Positions 56,114 through 63,809 of a DNA stretch of 64,000 nucleotides are shown one piece after another; positions within the stretch are counted from its first letter, which is position 1, and each line of letters begins with the position of its first letter. Both the position numbers and the translations under genes were made by a program. A model generated the notes under the pieces. It was not told the origin of the DNA. It did not search any database and worked only from the letters and a program-made list of their open reading frames with translations. This stretch comes from an uncultured Acidobacteriota bacterium (lineage in GTDB: Bacteria; Acidobacteriota; UBA6911; RPQK01; JAPXNP01), in NCBI GenBank assembly GCA_963777605.1, contig CAVZRV010000007.1:576001-640000 (forward strand). Reading direction: 5' to 3'.

Positions 56114-57043
56114 ATGAAATTCTGCACGTTTATTCGGGAGGGGCAGACGTGCCCCGGCTTTGAGTTGCAGGGACGATGGATCGTCGGACTCAGGGAAGCC
56201 GGCCTGGCGTTGGTGGAGTCGGGGAGGGTCCCCAAAGATGCGCGTTCCATCATCGAATTGCCCGACCTGAAGAGCTGGCTTTCGCAGGGAACCGAAGCAT
56301 TCGAGATCGCGAGCCTGATTCACGACCTGGTCTCCGAGAAGTTTCCCGGCGTCTACCCCCGAAACCGGACTCGCCTGATCGCTCCACTTCCCGACCCGGG
56401 CAAGATCATTGCCGTCGGCCTTAACTACCGGAAGCATGCGGAAGAGCAGAATACTCCGCTCCCTACGTCACCCCTGATTTTTGCGAAGTTCCCGAGTGCC
56501 GTCATCGGACCGGACGAACCGATCAAGCTTCCGGCCATCAGCCGGCAGGTGGACGTGGAGGCCGAGTTGTGTGCAGTCGTGACCCGACGTTCCAGGAACG
56601 TCACCGCACAAACGGCCGCCTCTTCACTGGCCTATTGTGTCGGCAACGATGTCAGCGCCCGGGACCTCCAGTATTCCGACCGTCAATGGGTCCGAGGCAA
56701 ATCCTGTGACACATTCGCCCCCCTGGGTCCGTGGATCGTCACTGCGGATGAAGTCGGTGATCCCCACTCGCTCGCGATTGAGCTGAAGGTGGACGACGAA
56801 ATCCGGCAGAGCGCGAATACCTCGGACATGATTTTCACCTGTTTCGACCTGGTGGAGTATCTGTCCCGTTGCATCACGCTCGAACCTGGTGATGTGATCT
56901 TCACCGGGACACCTTCCGGGGTTGGAGTCTTCCGGGAACCGCCCCTGTTCCTGGAACCCGGGCAACTGGTTACGGTCACCATCGAAAAGCTGGGGACCCT
57001 GACCAACCCGGTCGTGACCGATACTATTTCCGTTCCCAGATGA
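56114..57043 (+). CDS. Fumarylacetoacetate hydrolase family protein
   Basis: GLNY..H, EAEL, NDVSARD, GKSCDTF.PLGP and TGTPSGVG motifs. Confidence 0.93.
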   Translation: MKFCTFIREGQTCPGFELQGRWIVGLREAGLALVESGRVPKDARSIIELPDLKSWLSQGTEAFEIASLIHDLVSEKFPGVYPRNRTRLIAPLPDPGKIIAVGLNYRKHAEEQNTPLPTSPLIFAKFPSAVIGPDEPIKLPAISRQVDVEAELCAVVTRRSRNVTAQTAASSLAYCVGNDVSARDLQYSDRQWVRGKSCDTFAPLGPWIVTADEVGDPHSLAIELKVDDEIRQSANTSDMIFTCFDLVEYLSRCITLEPGDVIFTGTPSGVGVFREPPLFLEPGQLVTVTIEKLGTLTNPVVTDTISVPR

Positions 57044-57968
57044 AGGCGTGAAAGGTCTTGAGGATCTCGAAGCCTTTTCGCAGGTAGAGGCGAAACGCCC
57101 GGTCGTTCCCTTCCGAGACAGAAAGGGTAACCCGCGCCAGCCCCTTTTCCCGGCATTGCGCCAGATAGGTGTCGATCAAGGCCGAGCCAAGGCCCCGTCC
57201 CTGACAGTCTCTCCGGATAGAAATCTGGGGGATCATCGCGGTCTCCGGTGCGATTCGGGTTCCCAGGAGAACCCCGCAAACCTTGCCCTTTGCATCAACC
57301 GCAACCAGCGTGTCCTCGCCGAAGAACCGTCCACAGGCCGGGTTTTCGATCAGGTTTCGAACGAATCTCAGGCAGCCCTGGCGGGTCTGGTAGTCCCAGC
57401 AAATCGTTGAATCGAAAGACCCCCGGTAACTGTCGTAGATCACTTCGGATGCCGGCCCGATGAACTTGTCCTGCCAGTGCGTGAGCTGCCACGCCGGCTT
57501 TCCCATCCCCAAATTCCCGACAGCGGGAACCAGGGCACTGCCCAAATCGCAAACCAGGAAGTGACGGCGAAGAGCGCCGAAACTACAGGCCGCAAACAAG
57601 GATCGAAACTGGTAGTTGAACTCGAACAACTGCGTCTCCACCCGTTCAACACCGGGAACTCCGATGATCGTCTCCGCTGCGCGCTGAAGAAGAATCCCGT
57701 ACGGGTCCGGTCCCGCTTTCCGGTCGAGAACGTACAGGCCTCCGATGAATGAGACAGGGCGGTCCACGACGTAATAGGAATACCCAATCACTTCGTCTCC
57801 CGACTGCAGGACGTATCCCGGCAACGCCTTGGCCAGGATAAAGCCCTTGATCACGTTCAGCGTGGACCGGTAGTCCCAGAAAACCGAGTCTGTCCAGTGG
57901 CGGACCTCCTCTTCGAAGAGAGGGTTGAGCTTCTCAAGTGGACAGTCACGGAGAGGGATGATCTGCAT
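57024..57968 (-). CDS. Tandem GNAT acetyltransferase
   Basis: QGRGLGSAL and N..A..LY.RKGF motifs. Confidence 0.85.
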   Translation of the reverse strand: MQIIPLRDCPLEKLNPLFEEEVRHWTDSVFWDYRSTLNVIKGFILAKALPGYVLQSGDEVIGYSYYVVDRPVSFIGGLYVLDRKAGPDPYGILLQRAAETIIGVPGVERVETQLFEFNYQFRSLFAACSFGALRRHFLVCDLGSALVPAVGNLGMGKPAWQLTHWQDKFIGPASEVIYDSYRGSFDSTICWDYQTRQGCLRFVRNLIENPACGRFFGEDTLVAVDAKGKVCGVLLGTRIAPETAMIPQISIRRDCQGRGLGSALIDTYLAQCREKGLARVTLSVSEGNDRAFRLYLRKGFEILKTFHAFIWERK

Positions 57969-58067
57969 TTCCGGCCATTATTGCACTCCGAATCAGAGCC
58001 GTCACCCGGAAGCTTATCTCCGACCGCACGGAAGCCAGAAACTCCCCAATTGCAAATGCCTGCAAGT

Positions 58068-58097
58068 TTGCCAGGTCAGAAGGCGGAGATCTATAAT
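58068..58097 (+). promoter_or_regulatory. Sigma70-type promoter, near-leaderless
   Basis: TTGCCA-N18-TATAAT, ending 9 nt before ATG 58107. Confidence 0.55.
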
Positions 58098-58106
58098 CTA
58101 AAAGTA

Positions 58107-59054
58107 ATGAACATAAGGATTCATCCCCGCAACCTGGATCTTCTCAAGACGCAAGAAAACCTGATCGATCGCCATTGCGCGAAAATACGCAAGATGCTGA
58201 CGAGCTTTTCACCCGACACCATGGATTTGGACATCAGCCTGGAGAAGCTTCCGCGTGGAAGCCAGTACCAGACTGCCCTGGTGTTGGCTCTCCCTCAACG
58301 CACGATCAAGGTCGAGGAACTCGAGCATAACCCAACAACCAGCCTGGTCCGCGCCTTTGCCGAATTGCGTCGCCGGGTCAAGAGGTTCAAGAGCCAACTG
58401 AACCGGGAACGGCTCTGGCACAAGCAACCTCCGACGACCGAATCGGTTCCGCTAACCCGATGGGAAATCGAGGCGGAGGCCAATGAACACCTGGAAAAAC
58501 TCGAGAACTACGTGCGACGCGAAATTTACTACCAGGTGATTCAGGGCCAGCTTCCTCCCGGGATGATCGAACCTCAGGCCATCGTCGATGACGTCTTCCT
58601 TTTCATCACAAGCCGGCCCGAAGCCAAGCCTACCAGCCTCACCGTCGAACAGTGGATGATTCAGACTGCTCGCGCAATCCTGGGCCAGCGGATGGAAGAG
58701 ATCGAAGACCACCGGGACGAACTCCACGTGGAGGAGAGCGCATCCGAAAAGAGCGACTGGGAAGACGAGGATCTGAATTTCTACCAGCCCGATGAATCGC
58801 TGTCGATGGGGGACCTTTTCGAAAACGACAACGTCTCCAACCCGGAAGAGATTCTCGAGCGCGAAGAGGCGGAAGAGGAACTTCACCGATCGGTCGCAGC
58901 CCTTCCCCTGAACGTTCGTGAATCGTTCATCCTTTTTGCATTGGAAGGATTCACTTCTGACGAGGTCTCCATGATGACGGGCAGGAAGGCACAGGAGATT
59001 CTCGATGAAGTCGAGCAGGCACGGGAAATCCTCAAGAAAAACTTCACTTCATGA
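58107..59054 (+). CDS. HPF/RaiA (ribosomal S30AE)-like domain fused to ECF sigma-like regions 2 and 4
   Basis: MNIRIHPRNLDL...AFAELRRRVKRFK (HPF-like); IVDDVFL...WMIQTAR (sigma2-like); LPLNVRESFILFALEGFTSDEVS (sigma4-like). Confidence 0.75.
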   Translation: MNIRIHPRNLDLLKTQENLIDRHCAKIRKMLTSFSPDTMDLDISLEKLPRGSQYQTALVLALPQRTIKVEELEHNPTTSLVRAFAELRRRVKRFKSQLNRERLWHKQPPTTESVPLTRWEIEAEANEHLEKLENYVRREIYYQVIQGQLPPGMIEPQAIVDDVFLFITSRPEAKPTSLTVEQWMIQTARAILGQRMEEIEDHRDELHVEESASEKSDWEDEDLNFYQPDESLSMGDLFENDNVSNPEEILEREEAEEELHRSVAALPLNVRESFILFALEGFTSDEVSMMTGRKAQEILDEVEQAREILKKNFTS

Positions 59055-60238
59055 GATTTGCAGACCGACTTCAGGGAATCCAGGCATCCCTCACCATGAA
59101 GGTTATGCTGGAGGCCCAGGCGCTGCGGGCACAGGGGATCGATGTCATTGACCTCGGGCCCGGACAGCCGGACTTTCCAAGCCCGGCGGCGGCGAAAGAG
59201 GCGGGCAAGGGCGCCATCGATTCCAACTTCACCCGTTACACGCCGAGCGCCGGAATTGACGAATTGAGAGAGGCGATTGCCTTGAGGTTCAACCGGCGTT
59301 GGGGGACTTCCTACTCGATCGAAAACGTGCTCGTGTCGTCGGGAGCGAAACACTCGATTTTCAACGTCTGCATGGCCATTGTCGATGCGGGTTGCGAGGT
59401 CCTGATTCCCTCACCCTATTGGGTCACCTTCCCCGAAGTCGTCCGTATCTGCGGGGGAAACCCGGTCGAGGTCAGGACGGACGAAAAGGATCATTTCGTC
59501 CTCAACCCTCGGTCTCTCGAATCCGCCACTACCAGTAAGACCAGCAGCCTGATCATCAACTCCCCCAACAACCCGACCGGCGCGGTAATTCCGGGTAACC
59601 GGCTGGGAGAAATCGCTGAGTGGGCCCGCAAAAGAAATGTCTTCGTACTCTCTGACGAGACCTACGAGCAGTTTGTCTATGACGGTGCCAACCACGTCTC
59701 CGTTGCCTCGATGTTTGGCCCGGAGGAGGACAACTACGCTGTCGTCGGGTCGTTTTCCAAGTCCTACTCCATGACCGGCTGGCGCATCGGGTACTGCGTG
59801 GGGCCCTCGAACCTCATCGAAAAGATGAATGAACTGCAAAGCCATCAGACTGGCAACCCGGTCTCCATCTCGCAAAAAGCCGCTCTTGCCGCACTGAATG
59901 ACGACCCTTCAGGCCTTGACGCGGTGCGCCGCGAATATGGCTGGAGGCGAAAGTACGTACTCGATCGGTTGGCCGGAATCCCGGGTCTGGAATGTGCGCC
60001 ACCTGGAGGCGCATTCTATGTCTTCCCCCGGGTGAGGGATGCATTGGAGGCAGCCGGGTGTTCGAACTCGATCGAGTTTTCGCAATTCTTGCTTCGGGAT
60101 GCGCGGGTTGCTACGGTTCCCGGGTCGGCCTTCGGTTACGAGGGCCACGTTCGCATCTCCTATGCCGCTTCCCGTGCCCAACTCGCGGAGGGATTCGATC
60201 GGGTCGAGCGGTCGATTCGAAAGGCGTCCAGTCGTTAG
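59051..60238 (+). CDS. Class I PLP aminotransferase (aspartate aminotransferase-like)
   Basis: GQPDF, NSPNNPTG, DETY, SFSKSYSMTGWRIG and PGSAFG motifs. Confidence 0.94.
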   Translation: MRFADRLQGIQASLTMKVMLEAQALRAQGIDVIDLGPGQPDFPSPAAAKEAGKGAIDSNFTRYTPSAGIDELREAIALRFNRRWGTSYSIENVLVSSGAKHSIFNVCMAIVDAGCEVLIPSPYWVTFPEVVRICGGNPVEVRTDEKDHFVLNPRSLESATTSKTSSLIINSPNNPTGAVIPGNRLGEIAEWARKRNVFVLSDETYEQFVYDGANHVSVASMFGPEEDNYAVVGSFSKSYSMTGWRIGYCVGPSNLIEKMNELQSHQTGNPVSISQKAALAALNDDPSGLDAVRREYGWRRKYVLDRLAGIPGLECAPPGGAFYVFPRVRDALEAAGCSNSIEFSQFLLRDARVATVPGSAFGYEGHVRISYAASRAQLAEGFDRVERSIRKASSR

Positions 60239-60245
60239 GTCGGCG

Positions 60246-61004
60246 ATGGGTTCTCTCTCCAACATCTCGATCGTGCTGGTTCGACCCTCCGTGCCCGGGA
60301 ATATCGGCTCGGTAGCGCGGGCGATGAAGAACATGGGCCTGTCCCGCCTGAAGCTGGTGTCACCCGCCGATCCTCTGGGTCCGGAATCCCGCATGATGGC
60401 CGTCAGCGCATTCGACGTCGTCGAGCGGTCAACGATCTACGATTCGGTTGAAGATGCGCTGGCCGAAGAGCAGGTTGTGGCGGGCACAACCTCGTTCCGC
60501 GGACGAAAGGAGCGCACGCGGATCGAGGCTCCGCGCGGTATCGCCGGCAGGCTCCTGGAAGCCGCCAAATCCCAACGGGTGGCGGTTCTGTTCGGCCCGG
60601 AACGGTCGGGTCTGAACGAGGCCGAACTGGCCCTCTGCCAGCATCTCCTGTCCATTCCCGCGGCTCCCGAGTTTCCTACCCTCAACCTCGCCCAGGCCGT
60701 TCTTATTGTTTGCTACGAGTTCTACACACGCGCGCAGGACGCCGCGTCCGAGGCCGGTATCCCCTCGCTGGCCGCCCAGGAAGAGTTGTCCGGCATGTAC
60801 GACCACCTGGAACGCACCCTGGTCAACATCGGGTTCCTGAGCACGAGCAACCCCGGCCACATTATGCGGTCGATCCGGCGAATTCTCTCCAAGTCCGAGA
60901 TGACCTCACGTGATGTGAGGATCCTCAGGGGCATCGCCAGGCAGATGGACTGGTATATCGAACAGGGCCGAAAGCTTGCCCCGGAACGAGTGCGCAAGCC
61001 TTGA
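60246..61004 (+). CDS. trmJ: SPOUT RNA methyltransferase, TrmJ/LasT-type
   Basis: GNIGSVARAMKNMG, FGPERSGL and LNLAQAV...YE motifs. Confidence 0.88.
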   Translation: MGSLSNISIVLVRPSVPGNIGSVARAMKNMGLSRLKLVSPADPLGPESRMMAVSAFDVVERSTIYDSVEDALAEEQVVAGTTSFRGRKERTRIEAPRGIAGRLLEAAKSQRVAVLFGPERSGLNEAELALCQHLLSIPAAPEFPTLNLAQAVLIVCYEFYTRAQDAASEAGIPSLAAQEELSGMYDHLERTLVNIGFLSTSNPGHIMRSIRRILSKSEMTSRDVRILRGIARQMDWYIEQGRKLAPERVRKP

Positions 61005-61061: not shown

Positions 61062-62270
61062 CTATTGCCTGAGAATGAGCGCTGCGTTGTTTCCATCGCA
61101 ACTGAAGCCGGTTACCAGAACGTAGTCACCTGCGAGCCGTTGTGACTCCGCCGACAACTTGAGGTCCTCCGGCACTTCTTCGACCCCGGCTGTCGGGGGA
61201 AGTTCTCCACTCTCCAGCGCGCAGACTGCAACCGTGGCTGCGATCGCCGAGGATACTCCCAGCGCTTCGCCGCCGACCGCCTTGGGACAGGCAACGGGGA
61301 TTCCGGCAAGTCCGGACCCAAAGACCGCACGCAGCGCTTTCAGCTCCATTTCGTCCCCGGCCCTGCTGCCGCTGGCCCCGGAGACAATACCACCGATCTC
61401 CTCAGGTCCAATCCCGGCATCAACCAGTGCGCCTTGCATTGCTCTTACTGCCCCATCGGGCCGGGACGAGAACCGGGAGACAGAATGAGCGTCCTGGGCA
61501 TTGCCAAATCCGACCAGTCTGGCCAGCACGGGGGCGCTGCGCTCGGCCGCGTCCTCGGCTCGCTCGAGAACCAGCAATGCCGAACCTTCGCCCAGCACAA
61601 CGCCATCCCGAGTTGCCGAGAATGGCTTCACCCGACCGGTCTCGCTGAGCCACCCGTTCTTCCGAAAGCCGAGATAGGACTCCTCGGCAATCTCCTCTAC
61701 TCCGCCGGCGAGAAGCATCGATGCCCGTCCGAATCGCAGAGCATCGGAAGCATACTGGAGGGCAAGCAGGCCCGAGGCCAGTCCCGCCGAAATGGTCGAG
61801 TTGATGCCTCGAAGCTTGTGCCGGATAGCCGCCTGACCGGCGGGGGAGTTGATTACAGTGTTGGTAAACGCCATCGGGTTGACATACTTGACGCCATCCT
61901 CGAGGCCGCTCCAGTCGAAGGAAGCGATGCTGTGGACGCTTCCAAAGATGGTCCCACAGACGAGCCCTTCCTCCGGCTTTCCTTCACCGTCGTCGCTCAC
62001 CTCGCGGCCTACCGAAGAAAGCGCCAGCTGGGCAGCCACCGCCAGGAGGCGGGCGCTGCGGTCCAGTACCCTGATCCCCTTGGGGCCAAGCCAGGTCTGA
62101 GGTTTGAAATCCTGCACCTCGAAAACGGCGGGGCCGGTTTCCCCAATTTCGATTACGGAACTCGGCTTCACCTCGGGAACGGCTCTAAAAAGGGTCTTCC
62201 TGAATTCCTCCAGACCGGCCCCAAGTGGAGTAATCAAACCTGCTCCGGTAACAACAATCTCACTCGTCAT
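61062..62270 (-). CDS. Ketosynthase-like protein lacking the catalytic triad (chain-length-factor-like)
   Basis: KS fold (VTGAG, GEGSA, GNNAAL). C-H-H is replaced: AGLASG for TACAAG, SGASGS for AHGTGT, GEALG for GHTMG. Confidence 0.85.
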   Translation of the reverse strand: MTSEIVVTGAGLITPLGAGLEEFRKTLFRAVPEVKPSSVIEIGETGPAVFEVQDFKPQTWLGPKGIRVLDRSARLLAVAAQLALSSVGREVSDDGEGKPEEGLVCGTIFGSVHSIASFDWSGLEDGVKYVNPMAFTNTVINSPAGQAAIRHKLRGINSTISAGLASGLLALQYASDALRFGRASMLLAGGVEEIAEESYLGFRKNGWLSETGRVKPFSATRDGVVLGEGSALLVLERAEDAAERSAPVLARLVGFGNAQDAHSVSRFSSRPDGAVRAMQGALVDAGIGPEEIGGIVSGASGSRAGDEMELKALRAVFGSGLAGIPVACPKAVGGEALGVSSAIAATVAVCALESGELPPTAGVEEVPEDLKLSAESQRLAGDYVLVTGFSCDGNNAALILRQ

Positions 62271-62272
62271 CG

Positions 62273-63490
62273 TCAACGATCCCATCTCGCCAGGCAAAGG
62301 CTCGCGTTGTTCCCACCAAAGGCGTAAGCGTTGTTCAACACGATTTGAGGGTTGGTCTCCCGAGCCGTGTTGGGGACACAGTCGAGGTCGCACTCCGGGT
62401 CGGGCTCTTCGAAATTGATGGTGGGTGGAATTACCCCGGCTTGGAGAGCCAGCGCGCAGCCTGCCGCCTCGATTGCGCTGGCGGCCCCCATCGTGTGGCC
62501 CGTCATCGACTTGATCGAGCTCATGGGAAGCCGATCAGCCAGCGATTCAAACAGTCGGCGAGCCGCAATTGATTCTATCCGGTCGTTCGTCGGAGTCCCG
62601 GTGCCGTGCGCGCAAATATAGTCCACCTGGTCAAGGTTGACCCCGCTTTCCCGGAGGGCTCCCGACATCGCCCGCATCGCCCCATCCCCTTCCGGATGGG
62701 CGGCAGTCATGTGGTGGGCATCGCAACTGAGTCCGTATCCGAGAATTTCAGCATAGACGGTTGCTCCCCGCTTCAGGGCAGCGTCAAGCGGTTCCAGGAC
62801 AAGGATTGCAGCACCTTCCCCGGGAACCATCCCCTTACGATTCCGATCGAAGGGCTGGCACCGCTCGGGAGCAATGGCACCAAGGCGGGAGAAGCCCATG
62901 TAGGTAATCCGCGAGAACGCGTCCGCTCCACCCGCCAGCATGAGGTCGGCTCGTCCCAGCCTGAGCAGGTCGGTGGCGTTGCCGATTGCATAGTTTCCGG
63001 CCGCACAGGCAGTTGGAATCATTACACAGGGCCCGCGGACGCCAAATTCAATGGCCAGGTTGTCCGGGATCACGTGACAAGGGTACTTGGGGAAGATGTC
63101 GGCCGGAATCGCGTCGAACCCACCCGCGTTCCGGGCATCGTTGTACTGCTCCACGAACAACGGTTCTCCGGAAGTGGTGCCCATCGAGACGCCCACCCGG
63201 TAAGGATCGAAGCGTTCCAGTTCGATGCCGGCATCGGCGACAGCCATGTAAGCAGCCGCTACGGCCATCTGGGATGCCCTCCCGAGTTTGGCCGGATCCT
63301 GCCTTCGGACGTGCGCTGCCGGATCGAAATCCTTCACCTCCGCTCCCAGGTTTCCCGGAAAATCGGACGTGTCAAAGGACTGTACCGGCGCGATTCCACT
63401 CTTTCCGGAAGTGACAGCCTCCCAGAATACCTTCCTGCCGGAACCAACCGGAGTCACCAGTCCGATCCCGGTAATCGCGATTCTCTTCAT
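62273..63490 (-). CDS. Beta-ketoacyl-ACP synthase (FabF/KS-alpha type)
   Basis: TACAAG, AHGTGT, KSMTGH and AFGGNN motifs. Confidence 0.95.
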   Translation of the reverse strand: MKRIAITGIGLVTPVGSGRKVFWEAVTSGKSGIAPVQSFDTSDFPGNLGAEVKDFDPAAHVRRQDPAKLGRASQMAVAAAYMAVADAGIELERFDPYRVGVSMGTTSGEPLFVEQYNDARNAGGFDAIPADIFPKYPCHVIPDNLAIEFGVRGPCVMIPTACAAGNYAIGNATDLLRLGRADLMLAGGADAFSRITYMGFSRLGAIAPERCQPFDRNRKGMVPGEGAAILVLEPLDAALKRGATVYAEILGYGLSCDAHHMTAAHPEGDGAMRAMSGALRESGVNLDQVDYICAHGTGTPTNDRIESIAARRLFESLADRLPMSSIKSMTGHTMGAASAIEAAGCALALQAGVIPPTINFEEPDPECDLDCVPNTARETNPQIVLNNAYAFGGNNASLCLARWDR

Positions 63491-63548
63491 ATTGCTCCCG
63501 CCTTTCGTCGCGACACTGGAACTCTTGGCCAACCACTCTCCGTCGGCC

Positions 63549-63809
63549 TTATGCCGCTGCCGACAAGTGCTTCATCACGACTTCAACGGCCTGGTCGACA
63601 TTCTTAATCTCACGGAATTCGTCTTCAGGAATGTCGATCTTGTACTCCTTGTCGAGGGCGACCATCAACTCGATCGCCATCAAGGAATCGACTCCAAGCT
63701 CATCCATGAAATCGGCGGTATCACTGATTTCCGAAGGTTCAACTTCGGTCAGTTCGGCCACCCTGTTTCGTACTTCTTCCCGGACCTTTTCAGCTGTGAT
63801 GTCAGACAT
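63549..63809 (-). CDS. Acyl carrier protein
   Basis: ELGVDSL phosphopantetheine site; acidic 86 aa; GAGGAGG RBS. Confidence 0.95.
   Translation of the reverse strand: MSDITAEKVREEVRNRVAELTEVEPSEISDTADFMDELGVDSLMAIELMVALDKEYKIDIPEDEFREIKNVDQAVEVVMKHLSAAA

Follow-up and report, generated by a model that had tools for sequence, protein, structure and literature searches.

A gene at positions 58107-59054 (+) of a 64,000-nt stretch of contig CAVZRV010000007.1, from an uncultured Acidobacteriota bacterium, encodes a protein of 315 aa in which an N-terminal HPF/RaiA (S30AE) domain, known from ribosome hibernation factors, is fused to a highly acidic module resembling regions 2 and 4 of extracytoplasmic function (ECF) sigma factors. 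The whole stretch is referred to as the window, and positions are given in its coordinates. In the explanation that we tentatively prefer, and to which we give somewhat less than an even chance, the fusion is an HPF-type ribosome binder with a DNA-blind pseudo-sigma tail that holds RNA polymerase core; both binding steps are ones that we infer. To our knowledge, ribosome hibernation and RNA polymerase silencing have been described as distinct systems, linked by co-regulation at most. If the preferred explanation is true, the fusion represents a direct physical link of ribosome and polymerase in dormant cells.

The fusion is organized as follows, with the basis of each assignment given in brackets. 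Conservation was read from A1, an alignment of 37 homologous sequences that was also used for the AlphaFold2 model.

58107..59054 (+): coding sequence of the HPF-pseudo-sigma fusion, 315 aa plus stop (translation, A1 homologues)
58107..58421 (+): HPF/RaiA (S30AE) domain, residues 1-105 (Pfam, PDB profile matches, fold match, charge)
58422..58457 (+): proline-rich, poorly conserved spacer, residues 106-117 (predicted local distance difference test score, pLDDT, <50 at residues 106-112)
58458..58712 (+): sigma region-2-like helical domain, residues 118-202, net charge -8 (TIGR02937 from residue 156, alignment with sigmas of the same genome, fold match)
58713..58841 (+): acidic linker, residues 203-245, net charge -13 (model, charge)
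58758..58847 (+): linker motif W-DE-LNFYQPDE-L-LEDLL-D...PE, residues 218-247 (A1 conservation)
58842..59051 (+): sigma region-4-like helix-turn-helix domain, residues 246-315, net charge -9 (Pfam, NCBIfam, profile, charge, fold)
58986..59024 (+): acidic "recognition helix" KAQEILDEVEQAR, residues 294-306, net charge -2 (alignment with RpoE VGTVRSRIFRAREAI, charge control with sigmas of the same genome)

HPF/RaiA domain

Residues 3-98 of the fusion match Pfam Ribosomal_S30AE (PF02482) with 26.6 bits, above the cut-off of 23.7, and the score obtained in a scan of the host genome (25.3 bits) also exceeds it. A profile of the N-terminal domain matches 27 distinct ribosome hibernation factor sequences in the PDB at E <= 0.01, the best at 2.1e-9, and the profile of the whole family matches RaiA at E 2e-7.

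The AlphaFold2 model of the fusion (mean pLDDT 77.7, predicted template modelling score 0.59) consists of a domain at residues 1-105, a disordered spacer, a helical part (118-202), a low-confidence linker (203-245) and a four-helix part (246-314). The first domain is predicted to adopt the beta-alpha-beta-beta-beta-alpha fold with a long second helix. Its best structural match is RaiA chain 8rd8_D from the P. urativorans ribosome with Balon (Z 16.3, root-mean-square deviation (rmsd) 1.4 A over 99 residues), and more than 20 other HPF/RaiA/pY chains are matched with Z of 12-15.5 (Foldseek was run as well). The domain is strongly basic (net charge +8, isoelectric point (pI) 10.4). Basic residues of helix alpha-2 are conserved in A1, where R89 and K95 are invariant and positions 92 and 93 (K92, R93) are occupied by Lys or Arg in most rows. 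The HPF-like N-terminus of about 100 aa that the first-pass annotation of this DNA had recognized from the sequence is thus borne out by the Pfam score, by the profile matches and by the predicted fold.

The dimerisation domain of long HPF, Ribosom_S30AE_C (PF16321), was found by Pfam neither in the fusion protein nor in the host genome, which is 96.7% complete. This genome encodes two further, short stand-alone S30AE proteins of 106 and 122 aa (Pfam 44 and 35 bits); a second copy of the fusion was not found in it. The gene of the 122-aa protein (L002 1426-1794 (-), contig C28 of the host genome) lies directly downstream of a gene resembling that of the F-type ATP synthase alpha subunit and overlaps the start of the next gene, a gamma-subunit-like open reading frame, by 4 nt, which is an unusual place for a hibernation-factor homologue.

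Sigma-like module

Behind the spacer, the protein resembles ECF sigmas in sequence and fold over both a region-2-like and a region-4-like segment, in agreement with the first-pass annotation, yet all scores lie below the cut-offs of the sigma families. The NCBIfam sigma70-ECF model (TIGR02937) matches residues 156-312 with 26.8 bits (cut-off 42.9). When the genome was scanned with this model, the fusion came last of 33 matches with 32.3 bits, while 29 of the 33 passed the cut-off. Pfam Sigma70_r4_2 gives 19.5 bits (cut-off 25.7) and PhyR_sigma-like (PF22233) 18.7 bits (cut-off 27, E 0.0015); no match to Pfam Sigma70_r2 was detected in the fusion protein. At the level of profiles, the family matches region 4 of AlgU/RpoE at E ~5e-8 and PhyR chain 9by5_A at E 2.6e-6.

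The model of residues 113-315 is most similar to sigma 5uxx_C (Z 14.1, rmsd 4.0 A over 157 residues, the match spanning residues 115-315). Other matches in compact form are SigW and CnrH, as well as PhyR with Z of 10.4-11. Region 4 alone can be superposed on region 4 of sigmaE bound to -35 DNA (2h27) with rmsd of 1.0 A over 66 residues. Alignment with sigmas from the host genome reveals that the core-binding-helix pattern LVDEVF is retained.

The module departs in charge from the sigmas of its own genome. Ten family members were aligned with the 29 sigma-70-family modules of the host genome that pass TIGR02937. Net charge of the 13-residue recognition helix is -2 in the target and -1.8 on average in the family (-4 to +1, n=10), against +2.4 in the sigmas of the genome (0 to +4, n=29). 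The same reversal is seen in region 4 (target -9, family mean -6.9, sigmas +2.4) and in region 2 (target -8, family mean -2.8, sigmas +3.7), with the same ten and 29 sequences. The whole module (113-315) carries a net charge of -30 and has a pI of 4.28. In the HMMER alignment, the RpoE recognition helix VGTVRSRIFRAREAI faces the family consensus PEEVLKEVEEAREEL; Arg, Ser and Phe at the recognition positions of RpoE align to Leu, Lys/x and Glu, respectively. The acidic recognition helix of the target had been noticed in the first-pass annotation. The module is probably not a DNA reader, its basic DNA-reading surfaces having been lost.

Conserved acidic linker

The segment between the two sigma-like domains, already described as very acidic in the first-pass annotation, spans residues 203-245 and has a net charge of -13. 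No other part of the protein is as well conserved as the motif that it holds: mean pairwise identity amounts to 66% in the linker motif, 59% in region 4, 55% in the HPF domain, 48% in region 2 and 18% in residues 106-120. Ten residues of the motif are invariant in A1: D220, E221, F225, Q227, P228, D229, E230, D236, P246 and E247. A linker that is better conserved than the domains on either side is what one would expect if it touches a highly conserved partner.

When the best 150 representatives at 50% identity were checked for a loose form of the motif, 68 of 112 proteins of at least 290 aa and 22 of 32 proteins of 170-289 aa had it; none of the 29 sigma modules of the host genome does. The motif is degenerate in a full-length relative with 23% identity (L061). 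One relative of 221 aa (L060 4971-5636 (-)) has no part other than the sigma-like module and retains the LDFYQPDE motif of the linker; it is flanked by genes for an amidohydrolase-like protein and a membrane protein, and no HPF gene stands beside it.

Region 3.2 of primary sigmas lies inside the polymerase in holoenzymes. Both MAFFT and hhalign place residues 230-251 of the fusion on the EDSHLGDFIEDRGVVSP stretch of RpoD, the primary sigma of the host genome. We regard this likeness of the linker to region 3.2 as a weak lead and not as a result.

Start codon, promoter and transcript

The open frame around the fusion extends over 57897..59054 (+). Residues M1 and N2 of the 315-aa protein are nearly invariant in A1; one row is shorter at the N-terminus and another has three extra residues. 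Since, in addition, a conserved promoter lies inside the longer frame, ATG 58107 is taken as the right start. On the same grounds (homologues begin with MN, and the -35/-10 promoter would fall within the extra stretch), a GTG start at 57897 (385 aa) and the 332-aa gene call present in the database were both rejected.

58068..58097 (+): housekeeping-type promoter, TTGCCA, 18-nt spacer, TATAAT (11 of 12 positions match the consensus)

In the window, the -10 hexamer ends 9 nt before the ATG of the fusion. TATAAT is invariant across an alignment of 10 upstream regions, and it precedes the ATG by 6-13 nt in 37 of 39 orthologous loci, as well as in the window. In orthologous loci, a -35 element of TTGCC type is located ~17-18 nt upstream of it. 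By its sequence, the promoter is of the housekeeping type rather than of the autoregulated ECF type. Given the usual spacing between -10 hexamer and transcription start, the predicted 5' end of the mRNA falls on the ATG or within a few nucleotides of it. The mRNA would thus be leaderless or nearly so, with no room for a Shine-Dalgarno sequence. Leaderless mRNAs can be translated by non-dissociated 70S ribosomes. Such an mRNA could tie synthesis of the fusion to the pool of idle ribosomes.

As to expression, one RNA-library run was found (share 0.08). A metatranscriptomic contig of 189 nt matches positions 58448-58633 with 4 differing letters and shows the presence of a near-identical sequence in an RNA library, nothing more. 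Because it carries no information on start, end or strand, and carry-over of DNA is possible, nothing follows from it for the leaderless start.

Distribution of the family

Using a word-indexed search, 129 family proteins (clusters at 90% identity) were retrieved at E <= 0.001 among 2362 candidates. With few exceptions, they have 314-320 aa and originate from metagenome-derived genomes of Acidobacteriota. They bear the database names "sigma-70 family RNA polymerase sigma factor" or "HPF/RaiA family ribosome-associated protein". The architecture is hence present in databases under automatic names, as the first-pass annotation had allowed for. Exhaustive search of representatives at 50% identity yielded 548 matches at E <= 0.001, 201 at <= 1e-10 and 11 at <= 1e-30; most of the best 150 have lengths of 300-390 aa and align across both domains.

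A scan of species-representative genomes revealed 49 loci. Titled records are all from Acidobacteriota (including Blastocatellia, Terriglobia and Bryobacterales) with two exceptions, one Myxococcales and one Sumerlaeota genome. Clusters of the ESM Atlas with the same two Pfam families, taken as leads only, belong most commonly to Verrucomicrobiota (196 members), Acidobacteriota and Bacteroidota. When the clusters of 10 distant representatives were looked up, only two names were obtained, a Verrucomicrobia hypothetical protein and the JGI name "sigma24 / ribosome-associated". Distant members pass both Pfam cut-offs; for example, L046 scores 43.5 with S30AE and 35.7 with Sigma70_r4_2.

The phyletic counts that follow are samples of related genomes with no statistics attached, and absences mean not found among the genomes searched. 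The family profile matches 40 of 301 sampled genomes of the phylum at E <= 1e-10. Twelve of these matches cover region 4 only (ordinary ECF sigmas), 22 are full-length, 5 consist of the N-domain only and 1 of the sigma-like module only. The full-length carriers divide into 11 of the window's order (10 with a whole and 1 with a split gene) and 11 of other lineages. Altogether, 16 of 20 sampled genomes of the order (G000 included, as well as G049, which is flagged as unpublished) carry the fusion or an N-domain derivative: 10 whole, 1 split and 5 N-domain only. In the split case (G250:C26:14775-15720 (-)), the gene occupies two adjacent frames matching profile positions 1-244 and 242-316, a split due to either a frameshift or an assembly error.

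The C-terminal domain of long HPF (PF16321) occurs in 193 of the 301 genomes (unpublished G152 and G024 included) and in none of the 20 of the window's order. It is also present in 7 of the 11 fusion-bearing genomes outside the order, so the fusion cannot simply be standing in for long HPF there.

All five sampled genomes of genus g9, which belongs to the window's order, keep only the N-domain (G088, G148, G170, G200 and G260; E ~1e-36 to 1e-38). At two of the loci (L058 5001-5303 (+) and L059 5001-5327 (+)), an open reading frame of 100 aa is 47-49% identical to residues 1-102/108 of the target, keeps the signature residues of the family (PQ; RRV-RFKS-L) and ends right after helix alpha-2; convergent trmJ is next to it. 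No sigma-like remnant was found at the g9 locus by tblastn. By sequence, the g9 derivative is a natural deletion of the sigma-like module. It follows that the HPF-like domain of the family can stand alone and that it was retained across the genus.

Proposed role and alternative explanations

In the mechanism that we prefer, the basic HPF/RaiA domain would occupy the decoding channel of the 30S subunit, as HPF, RaiA and the N-domains of long HPF do. The following ~30 residues (roughly 98 to 128) would lead toward the mRNA exit and the uS2 side, like the linker of long HPF. There, the sigma2-linker-sigma4 module would replace the dimerisation domain of long HPF, with the sigma fold and an acidic, region-3.2-like linker kept. 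RNA polymerase core (beta' clamp helices, flap and cleft) would be the most likely partner of the module. Polymerase would be kept in a non-initiating state on or beside silenced ribosomes, and shutdown and storage of the translation and transcription machineries would thereby be coupled.

The geometry is compatible with structural data on long HPF. As given in passages of the T. thermophilus report (PMC6177447), its N-domain occludes the A, P and E sites, the linker heads to the mRNA exit and the 3' end of 16S rRNA, and its C-domain is located at uS2/h40. The same source refers to a 30S-RNA polymerase structure in which beta' contacts uS2 and h40. In our model, ~30 residues separate the end of the HPF fold (~98) from the first core helix of region 2 (129), a stretch comparable in length to the T. 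thermophilus linker. If a beta'-binding module took the position of the long-HPF C-domain, it would thus sit where the polymerase docks.

A complex of fusion residues 113-315 with residues 1-350 of beta' from the same genome was predicted along with 3 controls. The prediction, which the first-pass annotation had proposed in a wider form with the whole core, lends weak support to the contact (score 0.39, best control 0.01; contact agreement between runs at least 87%, partner pLDDT at least 74). Of 80 solved complexes, 58 attain the mark used for such predictions, as do 2 of 110 mismatched pairs; with a score of 0.60 or under, only 7 of the 80 attain it, along with both of the passing mismatches. 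As sigma-beta' complexes have already been solved, the pass may reflect likeness or memory only.

Several further observations count against the preferred explanation. On the ribosomal side, the fusion fails the NCBIfam HPF/YfiA equivalog (TIGR00741) with 14 bits against a cut-off of 40.9, and the two short S30AE proteins of the host genome, which score better, could be its working hibernation factors. PMC6177447 names, in the part concerned, Tyr31, Arg86 and Arg93 as ribosome contacts of the T. thermophilus HPF N-domain. Only Arg93 is kept in the fusion family, as K/R93. Arg86 aligns to near-invariant E86, with invariant R89 one helical turn on, and Tyr31 aligns to the variable Met/Leu position 30, with near-invariant F34 nearby. 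On the polymerase side, every sigma model remains below its cut-off, and the modelled arrangement of sigma2 and sigma4 corresponds to the compact form seen with anti-sigmas and not to the extended form of holoenzymes (rmsd ~26 A). The likeness between the linker and region 3.2 of RpoD falls short of significance, the sole hhalign match being that of the family profile with RpoD at E 0.054 over 22 columns. In PhyR, moreover, there is a precedent for complete loss of polymerase binding by a sigma-like domain. Homology, predicted fold, charge reversal, conservation, phyletic pattern and promoter are what the sequences and models provide; ribosome binding, polymerase binding and physiological role are what we infer from them.

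One alternative is a PhyR-like role, which we consider rather unlikely. The module would act as a decoy that binds an anti-sigma or another sigma-binding protein, and the HPF domain would make binding dependent on the state of ribosomes, so that a real ECF sigma is freed when ribosomes idle. PhyR chains are indeed found among both sequence matches (9by5_A) and fold matches of the module, PhyR_sigma-like is detected in the target (E 0.0015) and is precomputed for many relatives, the compact form of the model is that seen in sigma/anti-sigma and PhyR structures, and loss of DNA-reading residues has its parallel in PhyR. Membership of the PhyR family was nevertheless rejected. PF22233 stays below its cut-off (18.7 vs 27). 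Neither Pfam nor NCBIfam detects a receiver domain in the fusion, where HPF is the sole other domain. NepR (PF18557) was not found in the 96.7%-complete host genome, while a Caulobacter control was positive. No small anti-sigma-like gene is conserved beside the fusion, and the genome holds no closely similar real sigma, the best own match covering region 4 only (E 9.4e-10). Finally, anti-sigmas grip regions 2 and 4, whereas it is the linker that is most conserved here. Alternatively, the module might be a structural substitute for the long-HPF C-domain that only dimerises or contacts the 30S subunit (uS2/h40) to form 100S-like particles, with no link to transcription. Absence of PF16321 from all 20 sampled genomes of the order speaks for it, as does placement of the module where the long-HPF C-domain would be (compare the positions given in PMC6177447). 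We judge it unlikely all the same, since mere dimerisation would leave the retained sigma fold and the LVDEVF core-binding-helix pattern unexplained, long HPF is also present in 7 of 11 fusion carriers of other lineages, genus g9 lost the module and retained the N-domain, and the sigma-only relative (L060) keeps the linker motif without an HPF domain.

Two further explanations remain. If the S30AE-like domain bound another RNA or were a scaffold, its role would be unrelated to hibernation; the marginal Pfam score (26.6 vs 23.7), failure of the HPF/YfiA equivalog and loss of two of the three named T. thermophilus contact residues agree with this. It is nonetheless quite improbable in our view, because fold and sequence matches are solely to ribosome-bound factors, basic helix alpha-2 is conserved, and neighbouring genes have a translation theme (TrmJ, RimI-like GNAT and, in relatives, baeRF). 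The protein might also be a true ECF-type sigma with a regulatory HPF-like extension at its N-terminus, by which it would be sequestered on ribosomes or kept auto-inhibited pending a signal. Many members are annotated automatically as sigma-70 family sigma factors, the predicted model has sigma2 and sigma4 folds, some distant relatives pass Sigma70_r4_2 (L046, 35.7 vs cut-off 25.7), and ECF sigmas with N- or C-terminal regulatory extensions are described in parts of PMC7826278. Against it stand the acidic recognition helix and region 4, which are outside the range of most of the 29 sigmas of the genome, the last place among 33 sigma70-ECF matches, below the cut-off, the consensus TATAAT promoter in 37 of 39 orthologous loci, which is not of the autoregulated ECF type, and the lack of an adjacent anti-sigma gene. 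We hold it to be very improbable, and on charge, ranking and promoter evidence it was dropped as the leading explanation. The first-pass annotation had left the choice between a sigma stored on idle ribosomes and a DNA-blind factor that parks RNA polymerase; pI of the module (4.3), its last rank and the TATAAT promoter favour the latter and disfavour the former.

The pseudo-sigma explanation can be extended to a more specific arrangement, which we regard as doubtful though conceivable. Here, one chain would dock core polymerase on the silenced ribosome, with HPF in the decoding channel, the pseudo-sigma at uS2/h40 and the linker in the polymerase cleft. The leaderless mRNA, translatable by idle 70S ribosomes, would feed the switch forward. 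If true, the docked complex would be a stored "expressome in hibernation" from which transcription and translation restart together.

Comparison with known systems

Long HPF (T. thermophilus, S. aureus, B. subtilis) is organized like the fusion: an N-terminal S30AE domain, a flexible linker of ~30 residues and a C-terminal protein-binding module. In an order where no long-HPF C-domain was found (20 sampled genomes), the fusion occupies the "slot" of long HPF. Its C-terminal module differs, however, being a 200-aa acidic pair of sigma-like domains instead of the 57-position Ribosom_S30AE_C, and both types co-occur in other lineages. RaiA/pY and short HPF share the fold of the N-domain, and genus g9 has a derivative reduced to this domain (~100 aa); the fusion itself has 210 extra residues and does not match the HPF/YfiA equivalog.

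The sigma-like domain of PhyR, the anti-anti-sigma of the general stress response in alphaproteobacteria, likewise combines sigma2-sigma4 without DNA reading with a sensing or anchoring domain. In the fusion, the partner domain is HPF and not a receiver, no NepR was found and PF22233 remains below its cut-off. ECF sigmas with extensions (ECF41/42 at the C-terminus, ECF121 BldN at the N-terminus) also consist of a sigma2-sigma4 core and an extra domain, as parts of PMC7826278 describe (see also PMC3426412); these are working sigmas with basic recognition helices, whereas the module of the fusion is acidic and below all sigma cut-offs. In archaeal HibA/AHA, a nucleotide-sensing CBS tetrad is fused to the N-terminus of HPF, in contrast to the C-terminal sigma-like module of the fusion. 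Ribosome binding of HibA/AHA was seen by cryo-EM, while that of the fusion is putative. The concept of switching sigma/polymerase and ribosome silencing together is common to E. coli Rsd with RMF (PMC6134199, PMC6904343), which are two co-regulated proteins; in the fusion both activities would reside on one chain.

No publication describing the HPF-pseudo-sigma architecture was found in a literature search covering main texts. The fusion is not mentioned in main-text passages of the ECF reclassification (PMC7826278), the ECF evolution paper, the two archaeal HPF-fusion papers and the baeRF paper (PMC6514570). In the first of these, the words "ribosom", "S30AE" and "hibernation" are absent from the main text. 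The fusion can be viewed as an HPF-family factor with a new C-terminal module and, equally, as another type of sigma mimic, the second one. Only a demonstrated link between polymerase and ribosome would make it categorically new.

After PhyR, the fusion would be the second natural example of a sigma fold turned into a pure protein-binding device. Its hosts, Acidobacteriota, are an abundant and rarely cultured soil phylum, in one order of which it stands where a long hibernation factor is expected. With 315 aa and two separable domains, it represents a simple test object for joint shutdown and restart of transcription and translation.

Genomic neighbourhood

Genes adjacent to the fusion in the window correspond to those named in the first-pass annotation, that is an overlapping aminotransferase gene, a trmJ-family gene next to it and a divergent GNAT gene.

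57024..57968 (-): divergent GNAT acetyltransferase, 314 aa (best named match RimI, 51.9 bits, below the cut-off of 86.4)
59051..60238 (+): class I/II (aspartate-type) aminotransferase (start overlaps the fusion stop by 4-nt ATGA)
60246..61004 (+): TrmJ/YjtD-family RNA 2'-O-methyltransferase (TIGR00050, 204.6 bits, above the cut-off of 167)

Conservation of this arrangement was determined in 39 orthologous loci (at least 43% identity), with only loci having enough flank counted. The aminotransferase is directly downstream of the fusion in 27 of 33 loci, TrmJ lies within 4 kb in 19 of 27, and the divergent GNAT is located upstream in 24 of 29. A small anti-sigma-like gene conserved beside the fusion was not detected in the loci examined.

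Because its RimI match is below the cut-off, the upstream neighbour is called GNAT only. RimI is the acetylase of ribosomal protein bS18. This protein is listed in PMC6177447, as far as the relevant passage goes, as one contact of the long-HPF C-domain; the tie from GNAT through RimI and bS18 to long HPF may be a coincidence.

In distant relatives (~18 loci), a baeRF family-10 gene, which encodes a release-factor-like protein of Balon type, follows the fusion directly in L045/L046 (two near-identical loci), L049, L099 and L100. Relatives followed by baeRF belong to Blastocatellia and other groups; the sites concerned are L046 5988-7127 (+), L049 3785-4966 (+), L099 6238-7203 (+) and L100 6072-7268 (+).

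Neighbourhoods of baeRF and HPF, with proposed joint action on the ribosome, were reported by Burroughs and Aravind (in a portion of PMC6514570), in whose main text no sigma-like domain is mentioned. The relatives in L045/L046 are also preceded by ftsH. In the host genome, a baeRF family-10 gene is located ~3 kb from an ordinary ECF sigma gene (C30:312597-313052 (-), C30:316028-316447 (+)).

Further along (61062-63809 (-)), an acyl-carrier-protein-like open reading frame (86 aa) has downstream of it, on the same strand, two genes of beta-ketoacyl synthase type (443 and 419 aa) that overlap each other. The two genes look like part of a dedicated cluster of fatty-acid or polyketide type.

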